Assembly: GCA_016214355.1 (NCBI GenBank)
Contig: JACROO010000119.1
Span: 1-36,735 of the forward strand
Origin: Nitrospirota bacterium
Lineage (GTDB): Bacteria; Nitrospirota; Thermodesulfovibrionia; UBA6902; DSMQ01
DNA: 36,735 nt
Reading direction: 5' to 3'
Part shown: piece after piece, positions 23,552 through 35,524 of the stretch
How positions within the stretch are numbered: the stretch's first letter is position 1
Layout of the letters: each line of letters starts with the position of its first letter
Notes under the pieces: model-generated
Told to the model about the DNA's origin: nothing
The model's database searches: none
Seen by the model: only the letters and a program-made list of their open reading frames with translations
Made by a program: the position numbers and the translations under genes

Positions 23552-23731
23552 ATGAATAGAGAAGAAATCGTCGCGAAAATCAAAAACAAATTGCAATATC
23601 CCAAGACGACACTGCAGTTGTTTGCGGAATTGAAAGCAGGTAGAAGGAAGCGGGTACCGGATTATTTTATCGCGGATGCGTTGAAAGAACTCGATAGAGT
23701 GGTTCGGCTTTTGAACAAGCTTGTGAAATAG
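23552..23731 (+). CDS. small helical protein, 59 aa (below track cutoff)
   Basis: SD GAAAGGAG (23535-42). Product is MNREEIVAKIKNKLQYPKTTLQLFAELKAGRRKRVPDYFIADALKELDRVVRLLNKLVK. Followed by a hairpin plus T-run. Confidence 0.45.
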   Translation: MNREEIVAKIKNKLQYPKTTLQLFAELKAGRRKRVPDYFIADALKELDRVVRLLNKLVK

Positions 23732-23757
23732 GAGCGCAAAGATATTAATATTCCATG

Positions 23758-23793
23758 GACCTCTGTTAGTTTTAATGACTGACGGAGGTTTTA
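23758..23793 (+). terminator. terminator candidate at the phage-host transition
   Basis: GACCTCTGTT (23758-67) pairs with GACGGAGGTT (23781-90): 10 bp including 3 G.U pairs, running into TTTT. Confidence 0.4.
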
Positions 23794-23806
23794 GCGTAGA
23801 AAACCC

Positions 23807-23835
23807 TTGCAGATAAAATGTTATTGGATTAAAAT
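23807..23835 (+). promoter_or_regulatory. sigma70-like promoter candidate for the two-component operon
   Basis: TTGCAG (23807-12), a 17-nt spacer, then TAAAAT (23830-35). Confidence 0.4.
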
Positions 23836-23847
23836 AAGACCTGTATA

Positions 23848-23940
23848 AGGGTCTGAGGAGAATAACTTTCCTCGGAGGTGAAATTCATTGATGGTCGGGC
23901 CGCCATCTTGCAGTTTTGCTGCAGGATGGCGTTTTACTTT
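23848..23940 (+). promoter_or_regulatory. conserved leader element, copy 1 (SD hairpin + invariant 21-mer + terminator)
   Basis: AGGGTC. Hairpin 23853-59/23869-75 overlaps GGAGG (23874-78). 21-mer TTGATGGTCGGGCCGCCATCT is at 23888-23908. A 12-bp stem (23902-13/23919-30) is followed by GTTTTACTTT. The same architecture is found at 29453-29543. Confidence 0.6.
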
Positions 23941-23977
23941 AAGAGTAACCACACAATCACGATGCGTATACTATTAG
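23891..23977 (+). CDS. candidate leader peptide MVGPPSCSFAAGWRFTLRVTTQSRCVYY
   Basis: ATG lies 12 nt after GGAGG. The first six codons are identical in nucleotides to the copy-2 mini-ORF. The ORF runs through the terminator and ends 16 nt inside the response-regulator gene. Confidence 0.35.
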   Translation: MVGPPSCSFAAGWRFTLRVTTQSRCVYY

Positions 23978-24630
23978 TAGAAGACGAAAAAAATATGGCA
24001 AGTTTTATCAAGCGCGGGCTTGAAGAGGAGCGCTATGTAGTCGATGTTGCCTCTAACGGGGAGAAGGCGCTTTTCTTGGCGGAAACAAATCCCTACGATT
24101 TGATAATTCTTGATGTAATGCTTCCGGATACTACCGGTCTTGTTATTTGTAAGGATTTGCGGGCTAAGAAAATAGACACTTTCATTCTCATGCTTACTGC
24201 TCGCGATGACGTTAAAGATAAAGTATTGGGCCTTGAGACTGGAGCGGACGACTATTTGGCTAAACCGTTTGATTTCGATGAGCTTCTAGCGCGGATTGCC
24301 GCGCTTTTACGCAGGAAACGCCTAGATAAAAGCCCTATTCTTAAGGTCGCGGATCTTGAATTAAACCAACTTACCCATAAAATCATACGGGCTAAAAAAG
24401 AGATAGTCTTGACCGGTAAGGAATATAGCTTACTTGAGTATCTCATGCTCCATGCCAATCAAGTAGTAACGAGGACTGAGATATCGGAACACGTTTGGAA
24501 CGAGGATTTTGACAGCTTGACCAATGTCATAGATGTATTTATAAACCGGTTGCGTAACAAGATTGACCAAGGTTTTAAGAAAAAGCTTATTCATTCTCTT
24601 CGCGGTACGGGCTACATACTTAAGGAATAA
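23962..24630 (+). CDS. OmpR/PhoB-family response regulator
   Basis: The receiver domain starts at MRILLVEDEK, with the ...DLIILDVMLPD phospho-acceptor region. C-terminal winged helix: LTGKEYSLLEYLM...VIDVFINRLRNKI...IHSLRGTGY. Confidence 0.9.
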   Translation: MRILLVEDEKNMASFIKRGLEEERYVVDVASNGEKALFLAETNPYDLIILDVMLPDTTGLVICKDLRAKKIDTFILMLTARDDVKDKVLGLETGADDYLAKPFDFDELLARIAALLRRKRLDKSPILKVADLELNQLTHKIIRAKKEIVLTGKEYSLLEYLMLHANQVVTRTEISEHVWNEDFDSLTNVIDVFINRLRNKIDQGFKKKLIHSLRGTGYILKE

Positions 24631-24632
24631 CG

Positions 24633-26087
24633 ATGCAAAAATCTTTTCGCCGAAAAGTTATGACCGGATTTTGGGTAATGGTATTCCTGTGCGCATTTAC
24701 GGTCCTATTTGCTTTTATAACTACGCGTAACATGCAGAGGGTTTTCTTGAGTACCATGAGAGATAATGTTGCGGCCCTTAAGGCAGCAGAGGAGTTGGAA
24801 CTGGCTTTGCTTAGCCAAAAAGGCTTTTTATCAAATTATTTTTTAGACGGCAATCCAACCTGGATAAAAAAACTCGAAGAAAAGAAAACTATCTTCTTGG
24901 ATTGGCTTAACAAGGCGTCAGATGCCGCTTTGACTCCGCCGGAAAAAGACATCATTGAAGACATTAAACGTCTTTACAAAATATATGAGACCGAGCGCTA
25001 TAAGGCTAAGCATCTTTATGATTCGGGGAATGTTCGGGGCGCTAAAAACGTACTTCTTAAAGACATGTGGGAGGCTTTCGAGGCCCTATATCAAAAGTGC
25101 GAGGATTTTATTCGTATTAACGAATCGATTATTGACAAATCAGAGGTTTCTTTACAAAGAAAAATCATAGGTATGATGGTCTTGATCACGGTTCCTGCGT
25201 TGGTTATAATTGCATTAGTCGGCTCCATGTTCTTTTTGTTAACGAGAAGAATTCTCGCTTCCGTTAAGGACATTACAATAACAACTCGTAATATTAATCT
25301 TAAAAGCCTAAGCGGGCGGGTGAGCACCGCAAATTTGGAAACGGAAATGGAGTATCTGGCTAAATCAATCAACATGATGCTTGAACGTCTGGAACGGTCT
25401 TTTGAATATATTAAGGAATTCAGCTCAAGTATCGGCCATGAATTAAAGAGTCCGCTTGCGATTATTAAAGGAGAGTCCGAGGTTGCATTACGCAAAGAAA
25501 GACAAGTTGAGGATTATCGAAAAGCCTTGAGCGTCAATATCGAAGAAGCAAATAGAATGATCCGCATTGTCGAAGATTTGGTTTTTTTGGCAAAACTCGA
25601 TTACAATCCGGATAATATCAAGAAAGAAGTTTTTGATTTTATTCCGTTTTTTGCGGATATACAGAAACGCGCTCAAACGCTTGTTGCGCAAAAACAAATA
25701 GAGCTTACAGCCACGATTCCCGAAGTCGCCGTTACTTTAGAGGGTAACAAATTGCATTTGAGCCGCCTGTTTTTTAATCTTATTCAGAACGCCGTTAAAT
25801 TTACGTCTTCAGGAGGAAGAATCAATCTATCCGTTCATCCGGAAAACGGCGTATTAAAGGTTTCTATATCGGATACGGGCCTAGGAATCAGCGAAGAAGA
25901 TTTACCCAGGATATTTCAGCGGTTTTTCCAAAAAGGAAAATCCGAATCGGAAAGCAGCGACAGTATCGGCCTGGGTCTAAGCATTGCCAAATCAATTGCA
26001 AAGTTTCATAGTGGCGACATTGAGGTAAAAAGCAAGCCCGGAGAAGGCTCAACTTTTTCCGTAATCCTGCCTATTTTTCACCCCTGA
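24633..26087 (+). CDS. membrane sensor histidine kinase (2 TM, HAMP, HisKA, HATPase_c)
   Basis: Starts 2 nt after the regulator stop. H-box is FSSSIGHELKSPLAII, N-box NLIQNAVKFT, G-boxes DTGLGI / GLGLSIAK. Confidence 0.9.
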   Translation: MQKSFRRKVMTGFWVMVFLCAFTVLFAFITTRNMQRVFLSTMRDNVAALKAAEELELALLSQKGFLSNYFLDGNPTWIKKLEEKKTIFLDWLNKASDAALTPPEKDIIEDIKRLYKIYETERYKAKHLYDSGNVRGAKNVLLKDMWEAFEALYQKCEDFIRINESIIDKSEVSLQRKIIGMMVLITVPALVIIALVGSMFFLLTRRILASVKDITITTRNINLKSLSGRVSTANLETEMEYLAKSINMMLERLERSFEYIKEFSSSIGHELKSPLAIIKGESEVALRKERQVEDYRKALSVNIEEANRMIRIVEDLVFLAKLDYNPDNIKKEVFDFIPFFADIQKRAQTLVAQKQIELTATIPEVAVTLEGNKLHLSRLFFNLIQNAVKFTSSGGRINLSVHPENGVLKVSISDTGLGISEEDLPRIFQRFFQKGKSESESSDSIGLGLSIAKSIAKFHSGDIEVKSKPGEGSTFSVILPIFHP

Positions 26088-26254
26088 TTTTTTCTTCATA
26101 TCCCAGCAATTAAAGTGATAAAAGATTACAAAAAATTAATTTAATGTTAATCTTCGGTTCATTGTCGGTCTGCTATCCTAAAGCATTATACAAGCAAGTG
26201 TATCTTTAGGCGAAAAGGAAAGCAAAACTTGGCAGTTTTTAAAGGGAGCTAGGC

Positions 26255-26641
26255 ATGAAAAGAATTCTTATTATCGATGATGAGCGAAGAATTGGCCAAT
26301 CTTATACGGTCTTACTTTCGGAAGAAGGATTTGAAGTTAAGTATGCCTCAAGCGCGCAAGAGGCAACCAATTTTTTGATCCGTGAACACTTCGATTTAGT
26401 GCTGCTGGATATTAACATGCCGGAAGTAGACGGCAAAGGAATGTACGAAGTTATTAGAGAGTATGATCGGAACATGAAAGTCATCGTTTCAAGCGTTTAT
26501 CCTATTGAAGAACAGGTTCAAAGCATCTTAGGGGCTTCTGCGTATCACAATAAGTCGCAAGGAGTAGATATTCTCGTTGCCAAGGTAAAAGAAGTATTAG
26601 ATGGTGGGGATGCCAGTAAAGATTCTCATAGTCCAAGATGA
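26255..26641 (+). CDS. stand-alone CheY-like receiver protein
   Basis: SD AAGGGAG. MKRILIIDDE...DLVLLDINMPEVDG...KVIVSS pattern. No output domain. Confidence 0.85.
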   Translation: MKRILIIDDERRIGQSYTVLLSEEGFEVKYASSAQEATNFLIREHFDLVLLDINMPEVDGKGMYEVIREYDRNMKVIVSSVYPIEEQVQSILGASAYHNKSQGVDILVAKVKEVLDGGDASKDSHSPR

Positions 26642-26865
26642 AGCAGGGATATCTGATGAAAAGCATAATCGGAATGAAACTTATATTTGCAATCTTGATA
26701 GCAATACTATTAGACGGATGCACGTTTATTGTTAAAGACGACCATGCCGCAAAATATTACGGTATAGACGAACAGCGGGGTGGTGAGTATTTGAATCAAA
26801 TCCTTGAGAAGCAGCAGCAAGTATATCAGACCGAAAAGGTTTCTGTTGGTTCCAAAAGGCCATAA
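26638..26865 (+). CDS. small lipoprotein candidate
   Basis: ATGA overlap with the receiver gene. Signal sequence with lipobox LLDGC. Confidence 0.5.
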   Translation: MKQGYLMKSIIGMKLIFAILIAILLDGCTFIVKDDHAAKYYGIDEQRGGEYLNQILEKQQQVYQTEKVSVGSKRP

Positions 26866-26878
26866 ACGGGGTGATTAT

Positions 26879-27826
26879 ATGAAAAAAATAATATTGGCGG
26901 TTGTTCTTGTTTTAACATTCTCCAATTTAAGCTATGCGGATTTTAAGCAGGAAAGAGAAGCAAAAAGAGAAAGCGAATTAAAAGAGCTTCAGAAGCGTTT
27001 TGAATGGTGGCCAACAGATGCAAAGCCGGGGCCGGTTAAGGATCCCGAGCGCGGCGGCTACTGGTGGTGGCCTAATGAGCCGGGTAAGGCGCGCCCCTGG
27101 GGTAATCGAGGATATGTGTATGTTTACAAGATTATTTTTGATTACAAGGAAGAAGAATTACCTCCTCCTAAGCCGCAGGAGCTCCGTCCTTCGTTACTTA
27201 TTAAGAAGATAATTAAGAACGTGAAAGTATATTTCGACTACGATAAAGCGGTCCTGCGAGATGATGCGGTAAGAATTCTTAAGAGCGCTATTGGAACTCT
27301 TAAGCGCAACCCGGAAACAAGCATTCTTGTTACCGGCAATTGCGATCGCCGCGGGTCGGAAGTCTATAATGAAAAATTAGGGAAACGCCGGGGAGAGGCG
27401 GTAAAGCGTTTTATGCTGGAGAATGGTATTGATGAATCCCGAGTAAAGATTATCAGCCGCGGTAAGTTGGATGCTATTGCTCGCGTTACAGATTTGGAGG
27501 GGATGCAAAAGGAAAGAAATGCCCAGTTTATGATCGCCGAAGTTGAGGAAGTTATGCTGCCGTATCCGGGAGTACCGCAGGAAGCTGAAGCAAAACCGGT
27601 AGAAGAAGGCAAGTATATTATTGAGAAGGAAGAGAAAGTCGAGGCAGAAGTCAAGGTAAGCACCAGAGAGTACACGGTTAAAAAAGGCGATACCCTTTCA
27701 AAAATAGCCAAAGAGCAGCTCGGCGCAGCGCATCGTTGGAAATATCTGTACGAATTAAACAAAAATGTTATTAAGGATCCCAATAAACTTAGGCCGGGGA
27801 AGAAAATAGTTATTCCGATTGAGTAG
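26879..27826 (+). CDS. OmpA-family peptidoglycan-associated protein with C-terminal LysM
   Basis: Signal peptide MKKIILAVVLVLTFSNLSYA. OmpA-like block is VYFDYDKAVLRDDA...LVTGNCDRRGSEVYNEKLGKRRGEAVKRFM. LysM is YTVKKGDTLSKIAKEQLG...LRPGKKIVIP. The track's upstream start 26804 is rejected. Confidence 0.85.
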   Translation: MKKIILAVVLVLTFSNLSYADFKQEREAKRESELKELQKRFEWWPTDAKPGPVKDPERGGYWWWPNEPGKARPWGNRGYVYVYKIIFDYKEEELPPPKPQELRPSLLIKKIIKNVKVYFDYDKAVLRDDAVRILKSAIGTLKRNPETSILVTGNCDRRGSEVYNEKLGKRRGEAVKRFMLENGIDESRVKIISRGKLDAIARVTDLEGMQKERNAQFMIAEVEEVMLPYPGVPQEAEAKPVEEGKYIIEKEEKVEAEVKVSTREYTVKKGDTLSKIAKEQLGAAHRWKYLYELNKNVIKDPNKLRPGKKIVIPIE

Positions 27827-27842
27827 CGGAGCCTTTTTAAGC

Positions 27843-28418
27843 ATGCTTAAGACACTGTTTTATATATTACCCCTCTTGCTGGTCGTGGTTATGTTTTTTG
27901 CGCCAGCGCGTAACTATGTAAATGGTCTATTGCATCGGGATAAGAAGGAATTACGCGAGGAAGAGGTTATCGGCAGAGTTTCCGGTTATAATCCGCGAGT
28001 CGGAGAAATACAGAAAGTCCTGAAGGAAGCCGGTTTTGACCCCGGTCCGGCGGATGGAATCATGGGAGCGCAGACAAGGACGGCAATTAAGGGGTTTCAG
28101 AAGGCGAAGGGATTGAAGTCTACCGGCAAGATAGATTCGGTAACTCGGCTTGCCTTAAATAGGACAGAGGAAGTCAAAAAGCCCGAGTTTAAGGAAGAGC
28201 CAGAACCTGATTCATGGGGAAATACTTCCTCCGATAAGTCAAAGCAGATTCAGATGGCTCTTAAGAGCTCCGGATTTTATAAAGGGGAGATAGACGGAAA
28301 AATAGGGCCTCGAACTAAAACCGCGTTAAGAGCTTTTCAAAAGGCAAACAATCTTAATCCAGACGGGGTAATAGGGTCTAAAACGTGGGAAGCACTAAAA
28401 AAATACCTGAAGAACTGA
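27843..28418 (+). CDS. membrane-anchored protein with two PG_binding_1 domains
   Basis: N-terminal TM segment, then IQKVLKEAGFDPGPADGIMGAQTRTAIKGFQKAKGL and IQMALKSSGFYKGEIDGKIGPRTKTALRAFQKANNL. No catalytic domain visible. Confidence 0.8.
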   Translation: MLKTLFYILPLLLVVVMFFAPARNYVNGLLHRDKKELREEEVIGRVSGYNPRVGEIQKVLKEAGFDPGPADGIMGAQTRTAIKGFQKAKGLKSTGKIDSVTRLALNRTEEVKKPEFKEEPEPDSWGNTSSDKSKQIQMALKSSGFYKGEIDGKIGPRTKTALRAFQKANNLNPDGVIGSKTWEALKKYLKN

Positions 28419-28447
28419 ATATCTTTTATTAAACAGGAGGAGAAGCT

Positions 28448-28843
28448 ATGTTTACAAGAATGATTTTGGTTGTTTTTCTTGCTTTTGCTTTAGCGGGGTG
28501 CGCAACGAATTCTAAAAAGCCGGCTACGCAATCACAGCCCGTAATGTCACAAAAAACATATCAGCAGGAATCGTATTTCAAGGGTTATGATGATAATGAT
28601 ACACGGTCGTCAGATAGCTATGAAAAACCGACTAAGAAAAATTATTCTGAACCCGTAATAGAATTAAGTCCAAAACAGATTCAGCGGACGTTGAAAAAAG
28701 CCGGTTTCTACAAGGGCGAGATTGACGGAAAAGTCGGATCTAAGACAAAAGAAGCTATTATGAGGTTTCAAAAAGCACACGGTCTCAAGGCTGACGGTAT
28801 TGTAGGTAAGAGAACAAGCGAAGAACTACGTAAATATCTTTAA
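28448..28843 (+). CDS. lipoprotein with one PG_binding_1 domain
   Basis: SD AGGAGGAG. Lipobox LAGC. IQRTLKKAGFYKGEIDGKVGSKTKEAIMRFQKAHGLKADGIVG. Confidence 0.8.
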   Translation: MFTRMILVVFLAFALAGCATNSKKPATQSQPVMSQKTYQQESYFKGYDDNDTRSSDSYEKPTKKNYSEPVIELSPKQIQRTLKKAGFYKGEIDGKVGSKTKEAIMRFQKAHGLKADGIVGKRTSEELRKYL

Positions 28844-28939
28844 GTCAAAGGCGTTTAAATAGAAGGAGGTGAGAAAATAAGAATACCAAAATTGGTGGTA
28901 GTATTTTATCGTAAATTATAAACTTAACCGGAGGATAAT

Positions 28940-29338
28940 ATGAGGAAGAGAATTTTTTGTTTAGCAATCGTTGCTTTGTTGATGTTAGGATTGACCAGTC
29001 AAGGTTTTTGCATGGCCAATAGGCCGCCTGCTTCAAAGAAATCTACAAGTAAACAGGTAGAACCTATCCAAAAAATTTCGGGAAAGGTTTCCGGTTATAG
29101 CTGGACAAATTCCACAATTACAATAACAACGGTAAGCGGTACTTCCATTACGGTTGAGATTGACAAGGTAACTAAGATTTCTAAATCGGGAAAATGGATA
29201 AAAATGGCCGATATCAAAACGGGTGATGCAGTGAATGCTGACTACGAAACAAAAGGCGGGAAAAGGGTAGCCAGGACAATTGTAGTGCAGGAGAAGGTTT
29301 CTCCTAAGGTCACAATTCCAGAGAAAAAGAAAAGATAA
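28940..29338 (+). CDS. secreted beta-rich protein, unknown function
   Basis: SD CGGAGGA. Has a signal peptide (MRKRIFCLAIVALLMLGLTSQGFC). No domain recognised. Confidence 0.6.
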   Translation: MRKRIFCLAIVALLMLGLTSQGFCMANRPPASKKSTSKQVEPIQKISGKVSGYSWTNSTITITTVSGTSITVEIDKVTKISKSGKWIKMADIKTGDAVNADYETKGGKRVARTIVVQEKVSPKVTIPEKKKR

Positions 29339-29395
29339 TTTTATCTACATTGCTATAGCTTACCGTATAAGGAGTTCTAAATGAATTGCAATTTT

Positions 29396-29424
29396 TTGAC
29401 ATTGCTATATAATGACACTAATGT
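29396..29424 (+). promoter_or_regulatory. sigma70-like promoter candidate for the OmpA/trehalose operon
   Basis: TTGACA (29396-401), a 17-nt spacer, then TAATGT (29419-24). Overlapped by the second copy of the 11-nt repeat ACATTGCTATA. Confidence 0.45.
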
Positions 29425-29452
29425 AAATACCTTTCTCGTAAATCTATATTTT

Positions 29453-29543
29453 AGGGTCCGGGAATACTTAAATATTCCCGGAGGAATTTTTGATGGTCGG
29501 GCCGCCATCTGAGTTAATCTCGGGTGGTGGCTTTTTATTTTTT
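29453..29543 (+). promoter_or_regulatory. conserved leader element, copy 2 (SD hairpin + invariant 21-mer + terminator)
   Basis: AGGGTC. A 9-bp hairpin (29458-66/29473-81) overlaps GGAGG (29480-84). The 21-mer is at 29490-29510. An 11-bp stem (29501-11/29521-31, 3 G.U pairs) is followed by TTTTTATTTTTT. Confidence 0.6.
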
Positions 29544-29564
29544 ACAACCAAGGGAAAAACATGA
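29493..29564 (+). CDS. candidate leader peptide MVGPPSELISGGGFLFFTTKGKT
   Basis: ATG lies 8 nt after GGAGG. The stop TGA 29562-64 overlaps the ATG of the next gene (ATGA). Confidence 0.4.
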   Translation: MVGPPSELISGGGFLFFTTKGKT

Positions 29565-29686
29565 AAACATTTTTTCAGGTGTTCAAAGAAGAGAAAGAAA
29601 TGAGATTTATTTTTGCAATTTTTACTGTCATGATTTTATTGGGCATAGGCTGCGTTATATTCGCCGTCGCTCATCCAGCAAGCTAA
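29561..29686 (+). CDS. 41-aa single-pass membrane protein (below track cutoff)
   Basis: MKTFFQVFKEEKEMRFIFAIFTVMILLGIGCVIFAVAHPAS. Start is coupled to the leader mini-ORF stop. Confidence 0.45.
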   Translation: MKTFFQVFKEEKEMRFIFAIFTVMILLGIGCVIFAVAHPAS

Positions 29687-29699
29687 TGGAGGATTACTC

Positions 29700-30371
29700 A
29701 TGAAGGCCCGGGTAACAATTTCTGCGATTCTAATAGTATCTATGTTATCTGGGTGCGCCTATATCCAGAAAGCCAAGAGAACCGATGAGCTTGAAGCTGA
29801 AAATGCCAGCCTAAGAAATAAGATTGGCCAACTTCAGAAAGAAAAAACAAAGGAAGTCCGGCGGATTTATGAGGAAAAAGATAAAGAGCTCTCCGAGCTT
29901 GAGCGGGCAAAACGCGAACTGGAAGAATCGTTAAAACAGGAAATCGGAGAATATAAGGCAAAGCTACAAATGACCGAGCGGGGCCTGGTGATTACTTTTG
30001 TTTCCGAAATATTCTTTGATTCAGGCAAAGACAAATTGAAATCTGACGGCATGATGACGCTTAATAAAGTCGCCGAAGTTTTGAATAAAGAAGTTCCTAA
30101 TTCAAATATGGCTGTCGAAGGTCATACCGATAACGATCCTATAAAACATTCTGGATGGAAGTCAAATTGGGAGCTCTCTTCTGCCCGGGCACTGGCAGTA
30201 TTGCACTATCTTATTAGCGAAGGCAAAATTAGGCCGCAGCGTCTTTCTGCAAACGGCTATGGAGAATTTCATCCTGTAGCGCCAAATGATACAGTGCAGA
30301 ATAAGCAGAACAATAGAAGGGTGGAAATCGTAATTCTGCCTTCCAAATTAAGCAAAGTGAAACTGCAGTAG
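29700..30371 (+). CDS. OmpA/MotB-domain lipoprotein with N-terminal coiled coil
   Basis: SD GGAGG. Lipobox LSGC. Coiled coil covers about residues 30-90. OmpA-like C-terminal domain: VEGHTDNDPI...NWELSSARALAVLHYL...GYGEFHPVAPNDT..NRRVEIVI. Confidence 0.85.
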   Translation: MKARVTISAILIVSMLSGCAYIQKAKRTDELEAENASLRNKIGQLQKEKTKEVRRIYEEKDKELSELERAKRELEESLKQEIGEYKAKLQMTERGLVITFVSEIFFDSGKDKLKSDGMMTLNKVAEVLNKEVPNSNMAVEGHTDNDPIKHSGWKSNWELSSARALAVLHYLISEGKIRPQRLSANGYGEFHPVAPNDTVQNKQNNRRVEIVILPSKLSKVKLQ

Positions 30372-30605: not shown

Positions 30606-32843
30606 ATGAGAAGAGTATTTTTATTTATCCTACCCATTCTAATTATTGTTTCCGCGGCCTTTACGCTTTTTGGCTTCTTTCAGGTGCGCTTTGAAGAAGA
30701 GAAGCTTATTGATGATTTGAAAAGAAAAGCCAAAAGCGTTGCCGAAAGCATGGAATTGTCGGTACAGCATGTGCTTTCAGCCAATGATTTAAAAAATGCC
30801 AATTATCTTGCCGAGAAATTTGAGACTAGGGAAAGATTGCAGGGTTGTGTTATTTACGATAAAGACGGCAACATAATAGCGCTTACCAAAAGATTCGGTG
30901 ATTGGAAAGAAAAAGACAAGCCGTATATTAAAGATATTATAGCGAATAAGACTCCGCGGGGAGAGTTGGAGAAATTCAAAGATTATCAGGTTTATAGTTA
31001 TATTCTCCCTATAGTTGATGATGCGGGGCAGTTTTTGGGAATGGTTGAGGTTATACATGATACTTCCTATGTCTTCGCGAGATTGACTGAACTTTGGAAG
31101 CGCATTAGCTCAACGTTAATAATCTTAGTAGTAGTAATTTTTATTATCTCCATTTTTCTTCACAGGCAGATTTTTGCTCTGCCAGTACAGCGTTTAACAG
31201 ATTGGTTTAAGCATTTCCAGAAAGGCGAAACTGACGAAGCGCATCCAATAAGGGAAAAAGGAGATCTGGGTAAGCTTGCCAGCGAAGTCGAGCAGGTAGC
31301 ATTATCTTTAAGGGTTGCCCGAAGGACGATTTCAGATGAAGCGCAGGCACGCATGGAAAAAGAAGAAATATGGACAGAGGCAAAATTAAAGGATCTAGTC
31401 CATGCGAAGTTAGGAGAGAATGCCTTATTTATAGTGTCCAACCGTGAGCCTTATATGCATACAATAGATGAGGCAACTGGTTTAGAACAATGCATCAGGC
31501 CGGCAAGCGGCGTTGTTACTGCGATTCACCCGGTTCTATGCGCTTGTGGCGGCACATGGGTTGCTCATGGTGCTGGCAATGCGGATAAGAAATTCGTAAA
31601 TTCAAAGGATAAGCTCGGTGTTCCGCCTAAAGATATACGTTATATTCTTAAAAGAGTCTGGCTGGATAAAGAAGAAGAGGATGGCTACTATTACGGATTT
31701 TCCAACGAGGGCTTATGGCCGTTATGCCACAATACGCATACGAGGCCGGTTTTTCGGGAGTTGGACTGGCAGGCTTACAAAAAGGTGAATCAGAAGTTTG
31801 CGGATTCCGTTTTGGAGGAATTACCCGTCAAACATCCTTTTGTATTTATTCAAGATTATCATTTCACTCTGCTCGGGAAGATGATTAAAGAAAGGCGCCC
31901 CGATGCTACAATTGCGCTTTTTTGGCATATTCCCTGGCCTACACCGGAGGCATTCTCCATCTGCCCTTACCGCAAAGAGATTCTTGAAGGCATGCTTGGG
32001 TGCGATTTGATAGGTTTTCATGTCCAGAATCATTGCAACAATTTTCTTGATACAGCCAACAGACTCCTTGAATCAAGGGTTGATATAGAAAAATTCAGCA
32101 TTGTCCGTTCTGAAAAGGAAACTTTTGTTAGAGCATTTCCGATTAGCGTTAACGGGCATTTTAACCAAGCTGCGAAGGACGCGGACATAAAACGAGAGAT
32201 AGATAAAATTAAAAAAGAGTTTGACTTGGAAGGTAAAATTATAGGTTTGGGGGTTGACAGGATTGACTATACAAAGGGTATCGTTGAGAGAGTGCTTGCT
32301 ATAGACAGGTTTTTAGAGAAATACCCTCAATACAAGAAAAAATTCGTTTTTATTCAGCTTGCCGCTCCAAGCCGTGTGCATATAAAGCGTTATCATGACC
32401 TTATGGCAGAAATTGACGAATTAATCGAGAAGAAAAACTGGAAGTATTCTGATTCTGGCTGGAAGCCGATTGTTTATCTTAAAAGGCATTTTTCTTTGGA
32501 TGAAATCGAGCCTTTCTATAAAATGGCTGATCTTTGTATTGTAAGCTCGCTTCATGACGGCATGAACCTTGTGGCCAAAGAATATGTGGCAGCCAGAAAA
32601 GATTTGTCAGGGAGCCTTATATTAAGCCAATTTACCGGCGCAGCAAGAGAGCTTGTCGATGCTATTCAGGTAAACCCGTATTCAATAGAGGAGTTTGCCG
32701 ATAGCATACAATTAGTTCTTCAGATGCCACAGGATGAGAAAACAAAACGCATGGAAAAAATGCGGAAAGTTATTTCGGAGAATAATGTTTATCGCTGGGC
32801 AGGAAATATCATCACTGAGCTAGCGGCACTAAAGAAAGTATAA
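30606..32843 (+). CDS. otsA: membrane sensor-HAMP domain fused to trehalose-6-phosphate synthase (GT20)
   Basis: TM1 is at residues 4-25. An extracytoplasmic region of about 140 aa has Cache/PDC-like strands (GCVIYDKDGNIIALT; YSYILPIVDDAGQFLGMVEVIHD). TM2 (LIILVVVIFIISIFL) and a HAMP-like linker follow. GT20 motifs: FIVSNREPY, YYYGFSNEGLWPLCH, FIQDYHFTLL, FWHIPWP, DLIGFH, SLHDGMNLVAKEY. Confidence 0.85.
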   Translation: MRRVFLFILPILIIVSAAFTLFGFFQVRFEEEKLIDDLKRKAKSVAESMELSVQHVLSANDLKNANYLAEKFETRERLQGCVIYDKDGNIIALTKRFGDWKEKDKPYIKDIIANKTPRGELEKFKDYQVYSYILPIVDDAGQFLGMVEVIHDTSYVFARLTELWKRISSTLIILVVVIFIISIFLHRQIFALPVQRLTDWFKHFQKGETDEAHPIREKGDLGKLASEVEQVALSLRVARRTISDEAQARMEKEEIWTEAKLKDLVHAKLGENALFIVSNREPYMHTIDEATGLEQCIRPASGVVTAIHPVLCACGGTWVAHGAGNADKKFVNSKDKLGVPPKDIRYILKRVWLDKEEEDGYYYGFSNEGLWPLCHNTHTRPVFRELDWQAYKKVNQKFADSVLEELPVKHPFVFIQDYHFTLLGKMIKERRPDATIALFWHIPWPTPEAFSICPYRKEILEGMLGCDLIGFHVQNHCNNFLDTANRLLESRVDIEKFSIVRSEKETFVRAFPISVNGHFNQAAKDADIKREIDKIKKEFDLEGKIIGLGVDRIDYTKGIVERVLAIDRFLEKYPQYKKKFVFIQLAAPSRVHIKRYHDLMAEIDELIEKKNWKYSDSGWKPIVYLKRHFSLDEIEPFYKMADLCIVSSLHDGMNLVAKEYVAARKDLSGSLILSQFTGAARELVDAIQVNPYSIEEFADSIQLVLQMPQDEKTKRMEKMRKVISENNVYRWAGNIITELAALKKV

Positions 32844-32847
32844 CAGT

Positions 32848-33639
32848 ATGGAATATTTATTTGATCAGTGGGGGCAAGTCAAAAGGAAGCTAAACAATAA
32901 GCACATTGTGTTCTTTTTTGACTACGATGGGACTTTAACTCCGATTGCGGAAACTCCGCAGCAAGCGGTAATTCCTAGACAGGTGAAAGAATTGTTGAGG
33001 AAGTTATCACGAAAACCTAATTGTGCATTAGCCATTATCAGCGGGAGGGCGCTGGAAGATATAAAAGATCTCGTTAGGTTAAAAGGTATTATTTATGCCG
33101 GTAATCATGGGCTGGAAATTGAAGGCCCGAAAATTAAATTTGAAAGCCAGGTTTCACCGAGATTAAAGTCAGTTATACGCAATATTTATGAAGATATGGT
33201 TAACAAGCTTTCAAAAATCAAAGGAGTTTTAATAGAAGATAAAGGATTAGCTATCGGCGTGCACTATCGTTTGGTGGATGCAACAGATATCCAGGAGTTT
33301 TTGAACATCTTTTCCGAGATTACCGAGTCTTTTACGGTACGCGATAAGATTAAAATTAATGAAGGTAAAAAGGTGTATGAAATTAGGCCTCCGGTTGCTT
33401 GGGATAAAGGTAAAACAGTATTATGGCTTTTAGCAAGGCAGCAATTTTTAGTAGGCGAAGATAAAATTTTTCCCATCTACTTTGGGGATGATATAACCGA
33501 CGAAGACGGCTTCAGGGCATTAAAGAATAAAGGGTTAACAATATTTGTAGGCGAGCCAAAAGCCTCAGAAGCGGCTTATTATGTAAGGAATACAGAAGAG
33601 ATTACTCAGTTTATAAAGAAAGTTTTGGAGTTAGAATAG
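32848..33639 (+). CDS. otsB: trehalose-6-phosphate phosphatase (HAD family)
   Basis: Starts 4 nt after otsA. HAD motif I is FFFDYDGTLTP. ISGR, GNHG and the C-terminal GDDITDEDGF motifs are present. Confidence 0.85.
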   Translation: MEYLFDQWGQVKRKLNNKHIVFFFDYDGTLTPIAETPQQAVIPRQVKELLRKLSRKPNCALAIISGRALEDIKDLVRLKGIIYAGNHGLEIEGPKIKFESQVSPRLKSVIRNIYEDMVNKLSKIKGVLIEDKGLAIGVHYRLVDATDIQEFLNIFSEITESFTVRDKIKINEGKKVYEIRPPVAWDKGKTVLWLLARQQFLVGEDKIFPIYFGDDITDEDGFRALKNKGLTIFVGEPKASEAAYYVRNTEEITQFIKKVLELE

Positions 33640-33641
33640 CT

Positions 33642-34316
33642 ATGGCGCTAATATTAAAAGCAAAAGAGCCGTTTAGGTTTTACACACGTCTGCATTTATC
33701 AGAATTAACCGGTTTAAGAGCCACTACCTTAGATCAGCTGGTTAAGCTTATTAAGGATGTACCGGGATCTTGCATTTATCATCATACTCATAGGTTTTTG
33801 CAGCAACATCAGTTTTTTTCGCCCGAACCTCCAAACGACTTTGCCTATTGGGTTAGCGAAATATTAGGAGAGAAAGAGCTTGGCGAGCGGCTTGCAAGTA
33901 TAGATATAATGCAGTTCGCGAAAATTCATGATCTACGAGAGAGAATTATTTCAGTGATTGAAGAGTATTTAAAGGAGGGGCGTTTTGCCCAGCTTAAATT
34001 TGCCCGGGAAGGCGAAGAATTTTATTTTATAAAATCAGTGAGTTTTGTTATCCCGACAAATCACGTTGCCGACAACTTGGCAGATTTCGTTGAGATTATA
34101 AAGAAAATTACCTTTGATTCGATATATTTTCATATCTTTGAAGCGCGTCTGCGGCTTGAAAAGAAAGCAAACGACTTTTCTAACTGGATAGAGAATTCTG
34201 TTGGAAATAAGGAGCTTGCGGATGAGCTTGCGGCTTTAGATCCTTATACACGGACTCTTGATGACTTACGAAGCGCGATTATCAGCATTATCAATAAGAA
34301 ATTATTTGAGCAATGA
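33642..34316 (+). CDS. conserved hypothetical protein linked to trehalose genes (possibly DUF5752-like)
   Basis: 224-aa ORF, 2 nt after otsB and overlapping treT by 4 nt. The family assignment is only a recollection. Confidence 0.6.
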   Translation: MALILKAKEPFRFYTRLHLSELTGLRATTLDQLVKLIKDVPGSCIYHHTHRFLQQHQFFSPEPPNDFAYWVSEILGEKELGERLASIDIMQFAKIHDLRERIISVIEEYLKEGRFAQLKFAREGEEFYFIKSVSFVIPTNHVADNLADFVEIIKKITFDSIYFHIFEARLRLEKKANDFSNWIENSVGNKELADELAALDPYTRTLDDLRSAIISIINKKLFEQ

Positions 34317-35524
34317 TAAAACTTGAAGAATACATACCGATTGTAGGCCAATCCGTAATTGACGATTTAAGATTGATTGCAACCCGCCTTAAAGGCAAAA
34401 CCATACAGCACATTAACTCAACTTCTGTTGGAGGCGGAGTAGCTGAGATTCTTAGCCGTATGGTGCCTTTATTACAGGAATTAGGTGTTGGCGCGCGTTG
34501 GGATTTGATTAAGGGAGGGGAGCAGTTTTTTGAAGTTACTAAAAAATTCCATAATGCGCTGCATGGTTATCCAGGCGAAATAACAAAAAGAGACTTCGAG
34601 ATCTTCCTTGAAACAAGTCAGCAAAATATCAATGAGGTAGATACGTGCGGAAATATTGTGTTCATCCATGATCCCCAGCCGATTGCGCTGGTCAAGAGAA
34701 GACAGGGCAATAAGTGGCTTTGGCGTTGCCATGTTGATGTGTCTGATCCCAATGAAAAGGTTTGGAATTTTCTTATGGAATATATCGTGCGCTATGATGC
34801 AGCGGTATTTTCCGCTCCTAGTTTTTCGCGCAGGCTGCCGATTCGCCAGTTTCTGATTTCGCCATCAATTGATCCTTTAAGCGATAAGAATAAAGAATTG
34901 TCGCAGGAAACCATAGATAGAGTGTTGCTAAAATACCAAATTCCTAAAGATAAGCCTATTGTTACCCAGATATCGCGTTTTGACCGTTTAAAGGATCCTT
35001 TAGGAGTGATTGAAGCATACAGAGAAGTTAAAAAGTATATTAATTGCCGATTAGTTTTAGCAGGCGGCGGCGCTTCTGACGACCCAGAAGGGACAATGGT
35101 ATTTACGCAGGCGATGGAAATGGCAAAAAAAGACAAAGATATCCATGTTTTGCTTCTTCCGCAGAACGATATAGAAATCAATGCCTTGCAGCGGGCATCT
35201 ACGGTAATTATCCAGAAATCAATCCGGGAAGGCTTTGGTCTTACGGTTTCGGAGGCTCTATGGAAAGCAAAGCCGGTTGTAGCTTCTAATGTCGGTGGTA
35301 TTCCTTTACAGGTAAAACATAAATATTCTGGCCTATTATGTCATTCTATTCAGGGAGCTTCTTTCGCAATTAAGCAGCTCTTAAATAGCCCAGCATACGC
35401 GAAGAAATTAGGGGAGAATGGCAAAGAACATATTCGGAATAATTTTCTGATCACTCGGCATTTAAGGGATTATATGCTTTTGTTCCTTTCGCTATATCAT
35501 GGAGAGGATGTCGTTTATTTGTAA
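34313..35524 (+). CDS. treT: trehalose glycosyltransferring synthase, TreT-type (GT4)
   Basis: Blocks matching remembered archaeal TreT: INSTSVGGGVAEIL, FHNALHG, HDPQP, WLWRCHVD, SPSIDPLSDKN, VTQISRFD, DDPEG, NALQRAS, IREGFGLTVSEA, NFLITRH. Confidence 0.8.
   Translation: MIKLEEYIPIVGQSVIDDLRLIATRLKGKTIQHINSTSVGGGVAEILSRMVPLLQELGVGARWDLIKGGEQFFEVTKKFHNALHGYPGEITKRDFEIFLETSQQNINEVDTCGNIVFIHDPQPIALVKRRQGNKWLWRCHVDVSDPNEKVWNFLMEYIVRYDAAVFSAPSFSRRLPIRQFLISPSIDPLSDKNKELSQETIDRVLLKYQIPKDKPIVTQISRFDRLKDPLGVIEAYREVKKYINCRLVLAGGGASDDPEGTMVFTQAMEMAKKDKDIHVLLLPQNDIEINALQRASTVIIQKSIREGFGLTVSEALWKAKPVVASNVGGIPLQVKHKYSGLLCHSIQGASFAIKQLLNSPAYAKKLGENGKEHIRNNFLITRHLRDYMLLFLSLYHGEDVVYL

Follow-up and report, generated by a model that had tools for sequence, protein, structure and literature searches.

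A probable nhaA-I-family transcriptional ON switch ahead of a trehalose operon in a Nitrospirota bacterium

The window considered here, i.e., the whole analysed stretch of 36,735 nucleotides from a Nitrospirota bacterium, carries a short structured leader ahead of an operon for trehalose synthesis (copy 2), and a related leader precedes a two-component system further upstream (copy 1). This raises the question of what the element is, what it senses and how it acts on the genes that follow. The first-pass annotation had called it unclassified, a label that can be withdrawn since it is a full-length member of the Rfam family nhaA-I. In copy 2, positions 29454-29510 (+) match RF03057 (nhaA-I) over model positions 1-55/55 with 56.8 bits, the gathering score being 37 (E = 8.8e-09 over the whole window), and copy 1, at 23849-23908 (+), matches the full model (1-55/55, same gathering score) with 48.3 bits. 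With Rfam 15 at gathering thresholds, these two RF03057 hits are all the matches in the whole window; a comparison of 23700-29800 with Rfam by E-value gave no family besides nhaA-I, in both copies, and neither a tRNA nor a tmRNA was found in the window. A variant model of our own (R1) scores copy 2 at 69.2 bits and copy 1 at 60.0 bits. As judged by these matches, both leaders are copies of the curated riboswitch family that comprises the Li+-I and Na+-II classes. The earlier view that the element is present twice in the window, and that it acts in cis as a 5' leader, its parts being a hairpin, a conserved 21-mer and a terminator, agrees with these results and with those below, and we consider that copy 2 is very probably an nhaA-I-family riboswitch acting as a transcriptional ON switch ahead of the trehalose operon.

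The nhaA-I motif was described upstream of Na+/H+ antiporter genes by Weinberg et al. 2017 (PMC5737381), who noted that it "very rarely" precedes signalling, peptidoglycan-related or DUF1646 genes, and that one nhaA-I RNA is sometimes located near another. Its validation as the Li+-I riboswitch came with White et al. 2022 (PMC9646797), who reported ON-switch behaviour and a KD of ~20-30 mM, and who found that rare variants harbouring an intrinsic terminator respond to Na+ instead. These variants, named Na+-II, were reported only in Deltaproteobacteria, ahead of hypothetical genes, and their Desulfobulbus propionicus representative (the 'hypo' RNA) displays a KD of ~1.4 mM and antiterminates with Na+ in single-round transcription, in a purified system devoid of ribosomes (PMC9646797). 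The sole specificity determinant given is position 54, where Na+-II has C and most nhaA-I RNAs have U, and a C54U mutant of the Na+-II RNA responds to Li+, Na+ and NH4+ (PMC9646797). Validated members lost their function with mutants M2 (AGG to AAA) and M3 (loop CG to UU) (PMC9646797). In the same study, otsA is the downstream gene for 16/944 nhaA-I representatives (Supplementary Table I), and the authors suggest that the otsA-linked copies are possibly Na+-sensing variants with a role in osmotic stress, Li+ control of trehalose synthesis being raised as one possibility (PMC9646797). The association of this aptamer with otsA is thus already listed in the literature (White et al. 2022).

With regard to the parts of copy 2, every feature that the first-pass annotation had described is present in the sequence where it was placed, and each takes on a meaning in the alignment with RF03057. 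AGGGTC (29453-58) holds the conserved unpaired GGGU (29454-57, +), and the 9-bp hairpin CCGGGAATA/TATTCCCGG (29458-66/29473-81) corresponds to helix P1, aligned as 29458-65 with 29474-81 (+). The following GGAGG (29480-84) consists of the last two nucleotides of P1 and the invariant AGG (29482-84, +). The 21-mer TTGATGGTCGGGCCGCCATCT (29490-29510) is the P2 hairpin GAUGGU-CGGGCC-GCCAUC, with the strands GAUGGU/GCCAUC at 29492-97 and 29504-09 (+) and the CGGGCC loop at 29498-29503 (+); the diagnostic nucleotide of position 54 is a U at 29497 (+). The residues critical for function are in place, i.e., AGG at 29482-84, the site of M2, and the loop CG at 29498-99, the site of M3. An exact second copy of the 21-mer occurs at 23888-23908, with 0 matches expected (100 shuffles). 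Its identity in both copies, even at "synonymous" positions, follows from P2 being almost the family consensus, in line with the earlier argument for selection on the nucleic acid itself; what is selected is the sequence of the RNA and not a peptide.

The terminator had been drawn as an 11-bp stem (29501-11/29521-31) followed by TTTTTATTTTTT; this stem and its tract are there, but the real stem is longer, with 15 pairs over 29499-29533, eight of them G-C. The complete intrinsic terminator (29499-29543, +) comprises a 5' arm (29499-29513), a loop (29514-18), a 3' arm (29519-29533) and a T-tract (29532-29543), and has alone a folding energy of -25.5 kcal/mol (z = -6.7 vs shuffles). Its 5' arm includes GGGCC of the P2 loop and the whole P2 3' strand. 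Folded alone, 29453-29510 forms P1 and P2 (-22.7 kcal/mol), and the minimum-free-energy fold of the full leader has the terminator in place of P2. Copy 1 shows the same behaviour, with a terminator of 14 pairs followed by TTTTACTTTA (23901-23941, +) that overlaps the P2 3' strand (stem 23901-23931, -26.8 kcal/mol, z = -5.1). Nucleotides of the P2 loop and 3' strand are thus claimed by both structures, so that aptamer and terminator are mutually exclusive, and a ligand holding P2 would lead to read-through, that is, to an ON switch, the arrangement demonstrated for the D. propionicus RNA (PMC9646797).

The following mechanism can be proposed. Transcription would start a few tens of nucleotides 5' of the aptamer; a promoter-like TTGCAA-16 nt-TATAAT (29386-29413, +), identified by consensus match with 10/12 positions, would put the start ~30 nt upstream of it, promoter-like sites being no more numerous in the region than expected from shuffles. 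The copy 2 leader could also be transcribed by read-through from the upstream operon. The nascent RNA would fold into GGGU-P1-AGG-linker-P2, and binding of a small monovalent cation would hold the P2 hairpin and its CGGGCC loop, leaving the 15-bp terminator (29499-29533) unable to nucleate. RNA polymerase would then enter the operon, which codes for a small membrane peptide, OmpA, OtsA, OtsB, DUF5752 and TreT. In the absence of the ion, the loop of P2 and its 3' strand would be captured by the terminator, and RNA polymerase would stop at the T-tract. If the ligand signals salt or osmotic stress, the output would be the synthesis of trehalose, a compatible solute, and of envelope proteins, copy 1 applying the same switch to the two-component system. 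Most likely, a rise in salt switches on this stress-protection operon through copy 2.

Relatives of the element were collected by scanning GTDB genomes with the pattern GGAGG-N4-14-GNUGGYCGGGCCGCCANC, which gave at least 119 loci. Among the matches listed, GGGU and a P1 helix are found in 106 aptamers, including the two window copies, and 63 of these 106 (61 outside the window) carry a P2-overlapping terminator. According to the visible record titles of the matches listed, terminator-type hosts belong to Omnitrophota, Elusimicrobiota, Planctomycetota and "Deltaproteobacteria"; the hosts of the non-terminator type, among the same matches, are mostly Verrucomicrobiota and Acidobacteriota. Judging from this survey, the distribution of terminator-type variants is much wider than the "only in Deltaproteobacteria" of 2022. 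The closest relatives of the window among the matches listed carry the labels Candidatus Omnitrophota (L067, 81.7% nucleotide identity) and Planctomycetales (L033, 80%), the former showing the same order of aptamer, response regulator, histidine kinase and response regulator as copy 1, with a response regulator 96.8% identical.

The alignment of these relatives shows changes on both sides in 5/7 P1 pairs, and 98.9% of its P1 cells are paired vs 30-64% with the partner slid, a percentage that is partly circular as the relatives were picked by pattern and pre-filtered for P1 pairing, the pattern having also fixed most of P2. A model built from 50 copies gives at least 42 bits to true aptamers and at most 26 bits to chance pattern matches, and finds extra copies, with two in several loci and three within ~310 nt in L095. 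Multiple aptamers, each with its own terminator, were observed in L095 (2880-3188, -), L143 (4077-4248) and L206 (1439-1902), the tandem pair of L143, with C at position 54 (C-type), being located ahead of CitMHS. In other respects, a further aptamer lies directly 3' of treT in L053 (3333-3383) and L082 (7844-7897), at the start of the operon that follows; like copies 1 and 2 in the window, operons under riboswitch control thus lie in clusters in these relatives.

To describe the genes downstream, we retained ORFs of at least 90 aa, a set of at least 50 aa having held many spurious short ORFs. The first two large ORFs of the 61 terminator-type loci outside the window, among the matches listed, include GT20/OtsA (15), MscS (10), pentapeptide repeats (6), OtsB (5), Na+/H+ exchangers (3), Band_7 (3) and CitMHS (2). 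The order aptamer-OtsA-OtsB occurs in ~25 other loci among the matches listed, often followed by DUF5752 and TreT (tblastn). From its predicted products, this gene set looks like a salt/osmotic-stress regulon.

In the window itself, the first ORF after copy 2 codes for a small membrane peptide of 41 aa (29561-29686, +), starting at ATG 29561 and with a core MRFIFAIF...IFAVAHPAS that begins at ATG 29600; a comparison with Pfam gave no match for it. In L091 and L116, the ORF that comes first after the aptamer codes for a similar peptide of 28-32 aa, judged homologous by eye (MDNSMRFIFVVFGICILAGIICIVFAVSHGIR and MKFVYWTLGTCVFLGILCIIFAITHGVQ, respectively, compared with ...MRFIFAIFTVMILLGIGCVIFAVAHPAS in the window), and L116 also gives a tblastn match to the window peptide (E = 4.6e-4). 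More generally, small hydrophobic peptides (28-57 aa) are encoded by the first RBS-preceded ORF after the terminator in 10/63 leaders among the matches listed. By eye they fall into two families or more, one seen in the window, L091 and L116 and another in L049 and L053, and L206 has a similar peptide of 30 aa. Genes of this kind could account for the 'hypothetical' ones reported downstream of Na+-II riboswitches.

Next comes an OmpA-family gene (29700-30371, +; Pfam OmpA, E = 2.3e-19), with homologs sharing 69-76% identity ~2 kb downstream of the aptamer in L052 and L118, two loci where tblastn found both peptidoglycan-binding and OmpA homologs. The trehalose-6-phosphate synthase (GT20/OtsA) of 745 aa (30606-32843, +; Pfam Glyco_transf_20, E = 1.7e-124) has an extra N-terminal part of ~270 aa, in which we recognise by eye a hydrophobic segment, a Cache-like region, a second hydrophobic segment and a charged linker ahead of the GT20 domain. 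This part gives a weak Cache-like match to sCache_3_2 (24.6 bits, below the cutoff) and would provide OtsA with a fused input module like those of sensor kinases. Downstream ORFs of 18 other loci of the genome scan, among the matches listed, match the window OtsA, 17 of them over ~700 aa or more; these long matches, all from riboswitch-linked loci, show 41-73% identity, and one is also present in L212.

OtsA is followed by the trehalose phosphatase OtsB (32848-33639, +), DUF5752 (33642-34316, +) and a TreT-type trehalose synthase (34313-35524, +), all assigned by Pfam, and the operon therefore combines two trehalose routes, OtsAB and TreT. The order OtsA-OtsB-DUF5752-TreT also follows the aptamer in L082, L057, L011, L036, L039, L064, L103 and others. 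The position of DUF5752 between otsB and treT, conserved in many related operons, suggests that this domain may have an unrecognised role in trehalose metabolism.

Downstream of copy 1 are encoded an OmpR-type response regulator (23962-24630, +; Pfam Response_reg and Trans_reg_C) and a histidine kinase (24633-26087, +; Pfam HisKA/HATPase_c/HAMP/4HB_MCP), and the genes after them specify a receiver-only protein, an OmpA-LysM protein and two peptidoglycan-binding proteins. On the left, two-thirds of the window (434-22632), ending ~1 kb upstream of copy 1, look like a prophage or a tailed-phage-derived cluster, with genes for an HTH protein, a ParB-N6/N4 methylase, the terminase large subunit gpA, a lambda-family portal, a tail tube protein, DUF2460, Phage_BR0599 and a 1360-aa protein combining NlpC/P60, Phage-tail_3 and fn3.

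With the family and the architecture in hand, the nature of the ligand has to be considered. Mapped from the published construct sequences, position 54 closes the 5' strand of P2 as its last nucleotide; this strand reads, up to the loop, GUUAGC/CGGGCC in D. propionicus, GUUAGU/CGGGCC in the M4 mutant and GAUGGU/CGGGCC in both window copies. The latter therefore have the U of Li+-I type (U29497 and U23895) and not the C of Na+-II. They share with Na+-II the combination of an nhaA-I-like aptamer and a P2-competing terminator, and with the Li+-I family a location ahead of cation-transport or related genes, in their 5' leader (the otsA operon, OmpA and the two-component system). By their nucleotides, the window copies are mosaics, with a U54 of Li+-I type and a lower P1 and terminator of Na+-II type. 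By the position-54 rule alone, they would be filed as sensors of Li+ or of broadened specificity.

A Li+-selective (Li+-I) sensor of the same family, using the same terminator mechanism, would make the induction of trehalose synthesis and of the two-component system a response to lithium toxicity. This reading accounts for U29497, the equivalent of position 54 in most Li+-I RNAs, and for a P2 sequence (GAUGGUCGGGCCGCCAUC) that is the Rfam consensus, and Li+-controlled trehalose synthesis was considered in PMC9646797. It fits less well with the lower P1, which reads GGGUC...GGAGG as in Na+-II (the three validated Li+-I RNAs have GGGUG...CAGG), with the terminator platform, a feature reported for the Na+-responsive variants (PMC9646797), and with the terminator-type regulon (OtsA/B, MscS, Na+/H+ exchangers, Band_7), which has the look of osmotic adaptation and not of Li+ export. 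Copies with C and with U at equivalent positions also speak against it. L206 harbours two near-identical aptamers 400 nt apart, with U at position 54 in one and C in the other, and L212 has a C-type (Na+-II-like) aptamer with a terminator ahead of an orthologous OtsA, 71% identical to the OtsA of the window. Other C-type aptamers precede NhaA in L132 and L181 and a sodium:solute symporter in L145; the metagenome pattern scan for C-type aptamers was too permissive (15/123 matches true) and yields examples, not statistics. Furthermore, Li+ is normally far scarcer than Na+. On balance, we regard a lithium sensor as unlikely, and favour Na+, as a signal of salt or osmotic stress, as the physiological ligand, because U- and C-type copies hold equivalent regulatory positions, together with the C54U result.

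The window copies could belong, as we tentatively propose, to a large subclass of nhaA-I defined by a C-G first P1 pair (GGAGG), U54 and a terminator, widespread outside Proteobacteria (Omnitrophota, Elusimicrobiota and Planctomycetota, but also Desulfobacterota) and controlling an osmotic-stress regulon. The latter appears to include N-terminally extended OtsA in OtsA/B-TreT operons, MscS, small membrane peptides and, in the window, a two-component system. Should U54 RNAs indeed sense Na+ or monovalent cations broadly, the published single-nucleotide Li+/Na+ rule would fail, and copy 1 would represent a riboswitch gating a protein signalling system. The mosaic copies are in any case good test cases for the basis of Li+ vs Na+ selectivity.

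A different mechanism had been put forward for the leader of copy 2, namely a translated leader peptide, MVGPPSELISGGGFLFFTTKGKT, whose ribosome would melt the terminator and be handed over to the first operon gene via ATGA. The mini-ORF (29493-29564, +) is present, from ATG 29493 to TGA 29562-64, with its stop overlapping ATG 29561; its AUG stands 8 nt after GGAGG, the ORF spans the terminator, and an AUG is found at the same position in 59/63 terminator-type leaders among the matches listed. However, GGAGG (the end of P1 and AGG) and the AUG (in the P2 stem) are conserved aptamer nucleotides, paired or structured in the folded aptamer. Counted from the P2 AUG position, the ORF ranges in these 63 listed leaders from 7 to 769 codons (median 22) and ends before the terminator T-run in 13 of them, and the mini-ORFs have only MVGPPS in common, which is P2 itself; the conserved leader ORF of a leader-peptide attenuator, be it in presence, extent or regulatory codons, was not found among them. 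The second P2 pair, in the 106 copies among the matches listed, is A-U in 74, G-C in 6, U-A in 3 and G-U in 10, compensatory variants that fit pairing and not coding. Moreover, the validated D. propionicus member has no AUG at the mini-ORF start position and switches without ribosomes (PMC9646797).

As for the ATGA overlap, chance alone should often produce it, since an ATGA(AA) start provides a stop for any ORF in the +1 frame; it is absent in L091 and L116, the two loci with a homologous small peptide gene; and ATG 29561 may not be the real start of a peptide whose conserved core begins at ATG 29600. We judge the mini-ORF to be a by-product of the aptamer and terminator sequence, and leader-peptide attenuation, which has become very improbable, was dropped on the comparison of the 63 listed leaders and the ribosome-free switching of the validated relative.

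Finally, the idea that the adjacent OmpR-type response regulator uses the 21-mer as its DNA operator, linking both operons, can draw on the identity of the 21-mer at the two window sites, one of which precedes the regulator gene, but it is hardly tenable and was dropped, since the 21-mer forms the covarying P2 hairpin of an Rfam family, sits 3' of the likely promoter within the transcribed leader, and has its core conserved across phyla ahead of unrelated genes (Omnitrophota, Elusimicrobiota, Planctomycetota, Verrucomicrobiota, Acidobacteriota and Desulfobacterota-type MAGs), a response regulator being the first gene after the aptamer only in L067 among the other listed loci.

For the annotation of the locus, this means that the apparent novelty of the leader is removed and that its leader-peptide mechanism should be abandoned in favour of an nhaA-I-family riboswitch. 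What retains interest is the mosaic Li+-I/Na+-II signature, the control of a two-component system and a taxonomic spread beyond earlier reports. The analysis also suggests that poorly studied lineages, such as Omnitrophota, may rely on a cation riboswitch to switch on, under salt stress, the synthesis of trehalose together with envelope proteins and a two-component system.

Compared with the known cation riboswitches, the window copies share with Na+-I (the DUF1646 motif; White et al. 2022, Nat Chem Biol) a two-hairpin architecture and an association of ON switches with salt-related genes, but differ from it by the conserved nucleotides of the lower P1 and of the P2 loop. The resemblance to Li+-I is closer and includes the succession of GGGU, P1, AGG and a P2 whose CGGGCC loop is closed by a U-G pair, the full-length covariance-model match above the gathering score, the ON-switch logic, and otsA, signalling and peptidoglycan-related genes, which are among the rare associations of Li+-I. 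In contrast, the first P1 pair is C-G here (GGGUC...GGAGG) and G-C there (GGGUG...CAGG), an intrinsic terminator stands here in place of a presumed RBS control, and compatible-solute synthesis and a two-component system follow here rather than nhaA, Li+-I hosts being Proteobacteria. With Na+-II, represented by the D. propionicus RNA, the window copies have in common the lower P1 (GGGUCC...GGAGG), a terminator with a 5' arm that begins in the loop of P2 and a T-tract directly after the stem, as well as small or hypothetical genes downstream and low-GC anaerobe-type hosts. They depart from the validated RNA by U instead of C at position 54 and by a P2 stem GAUGGU instead of GUUAGC, and from the reported host range, Deltaproteobacteria, by closest listed relatives labelled Omnitrophota and Planctomycetales, host range not being a functional criterion.
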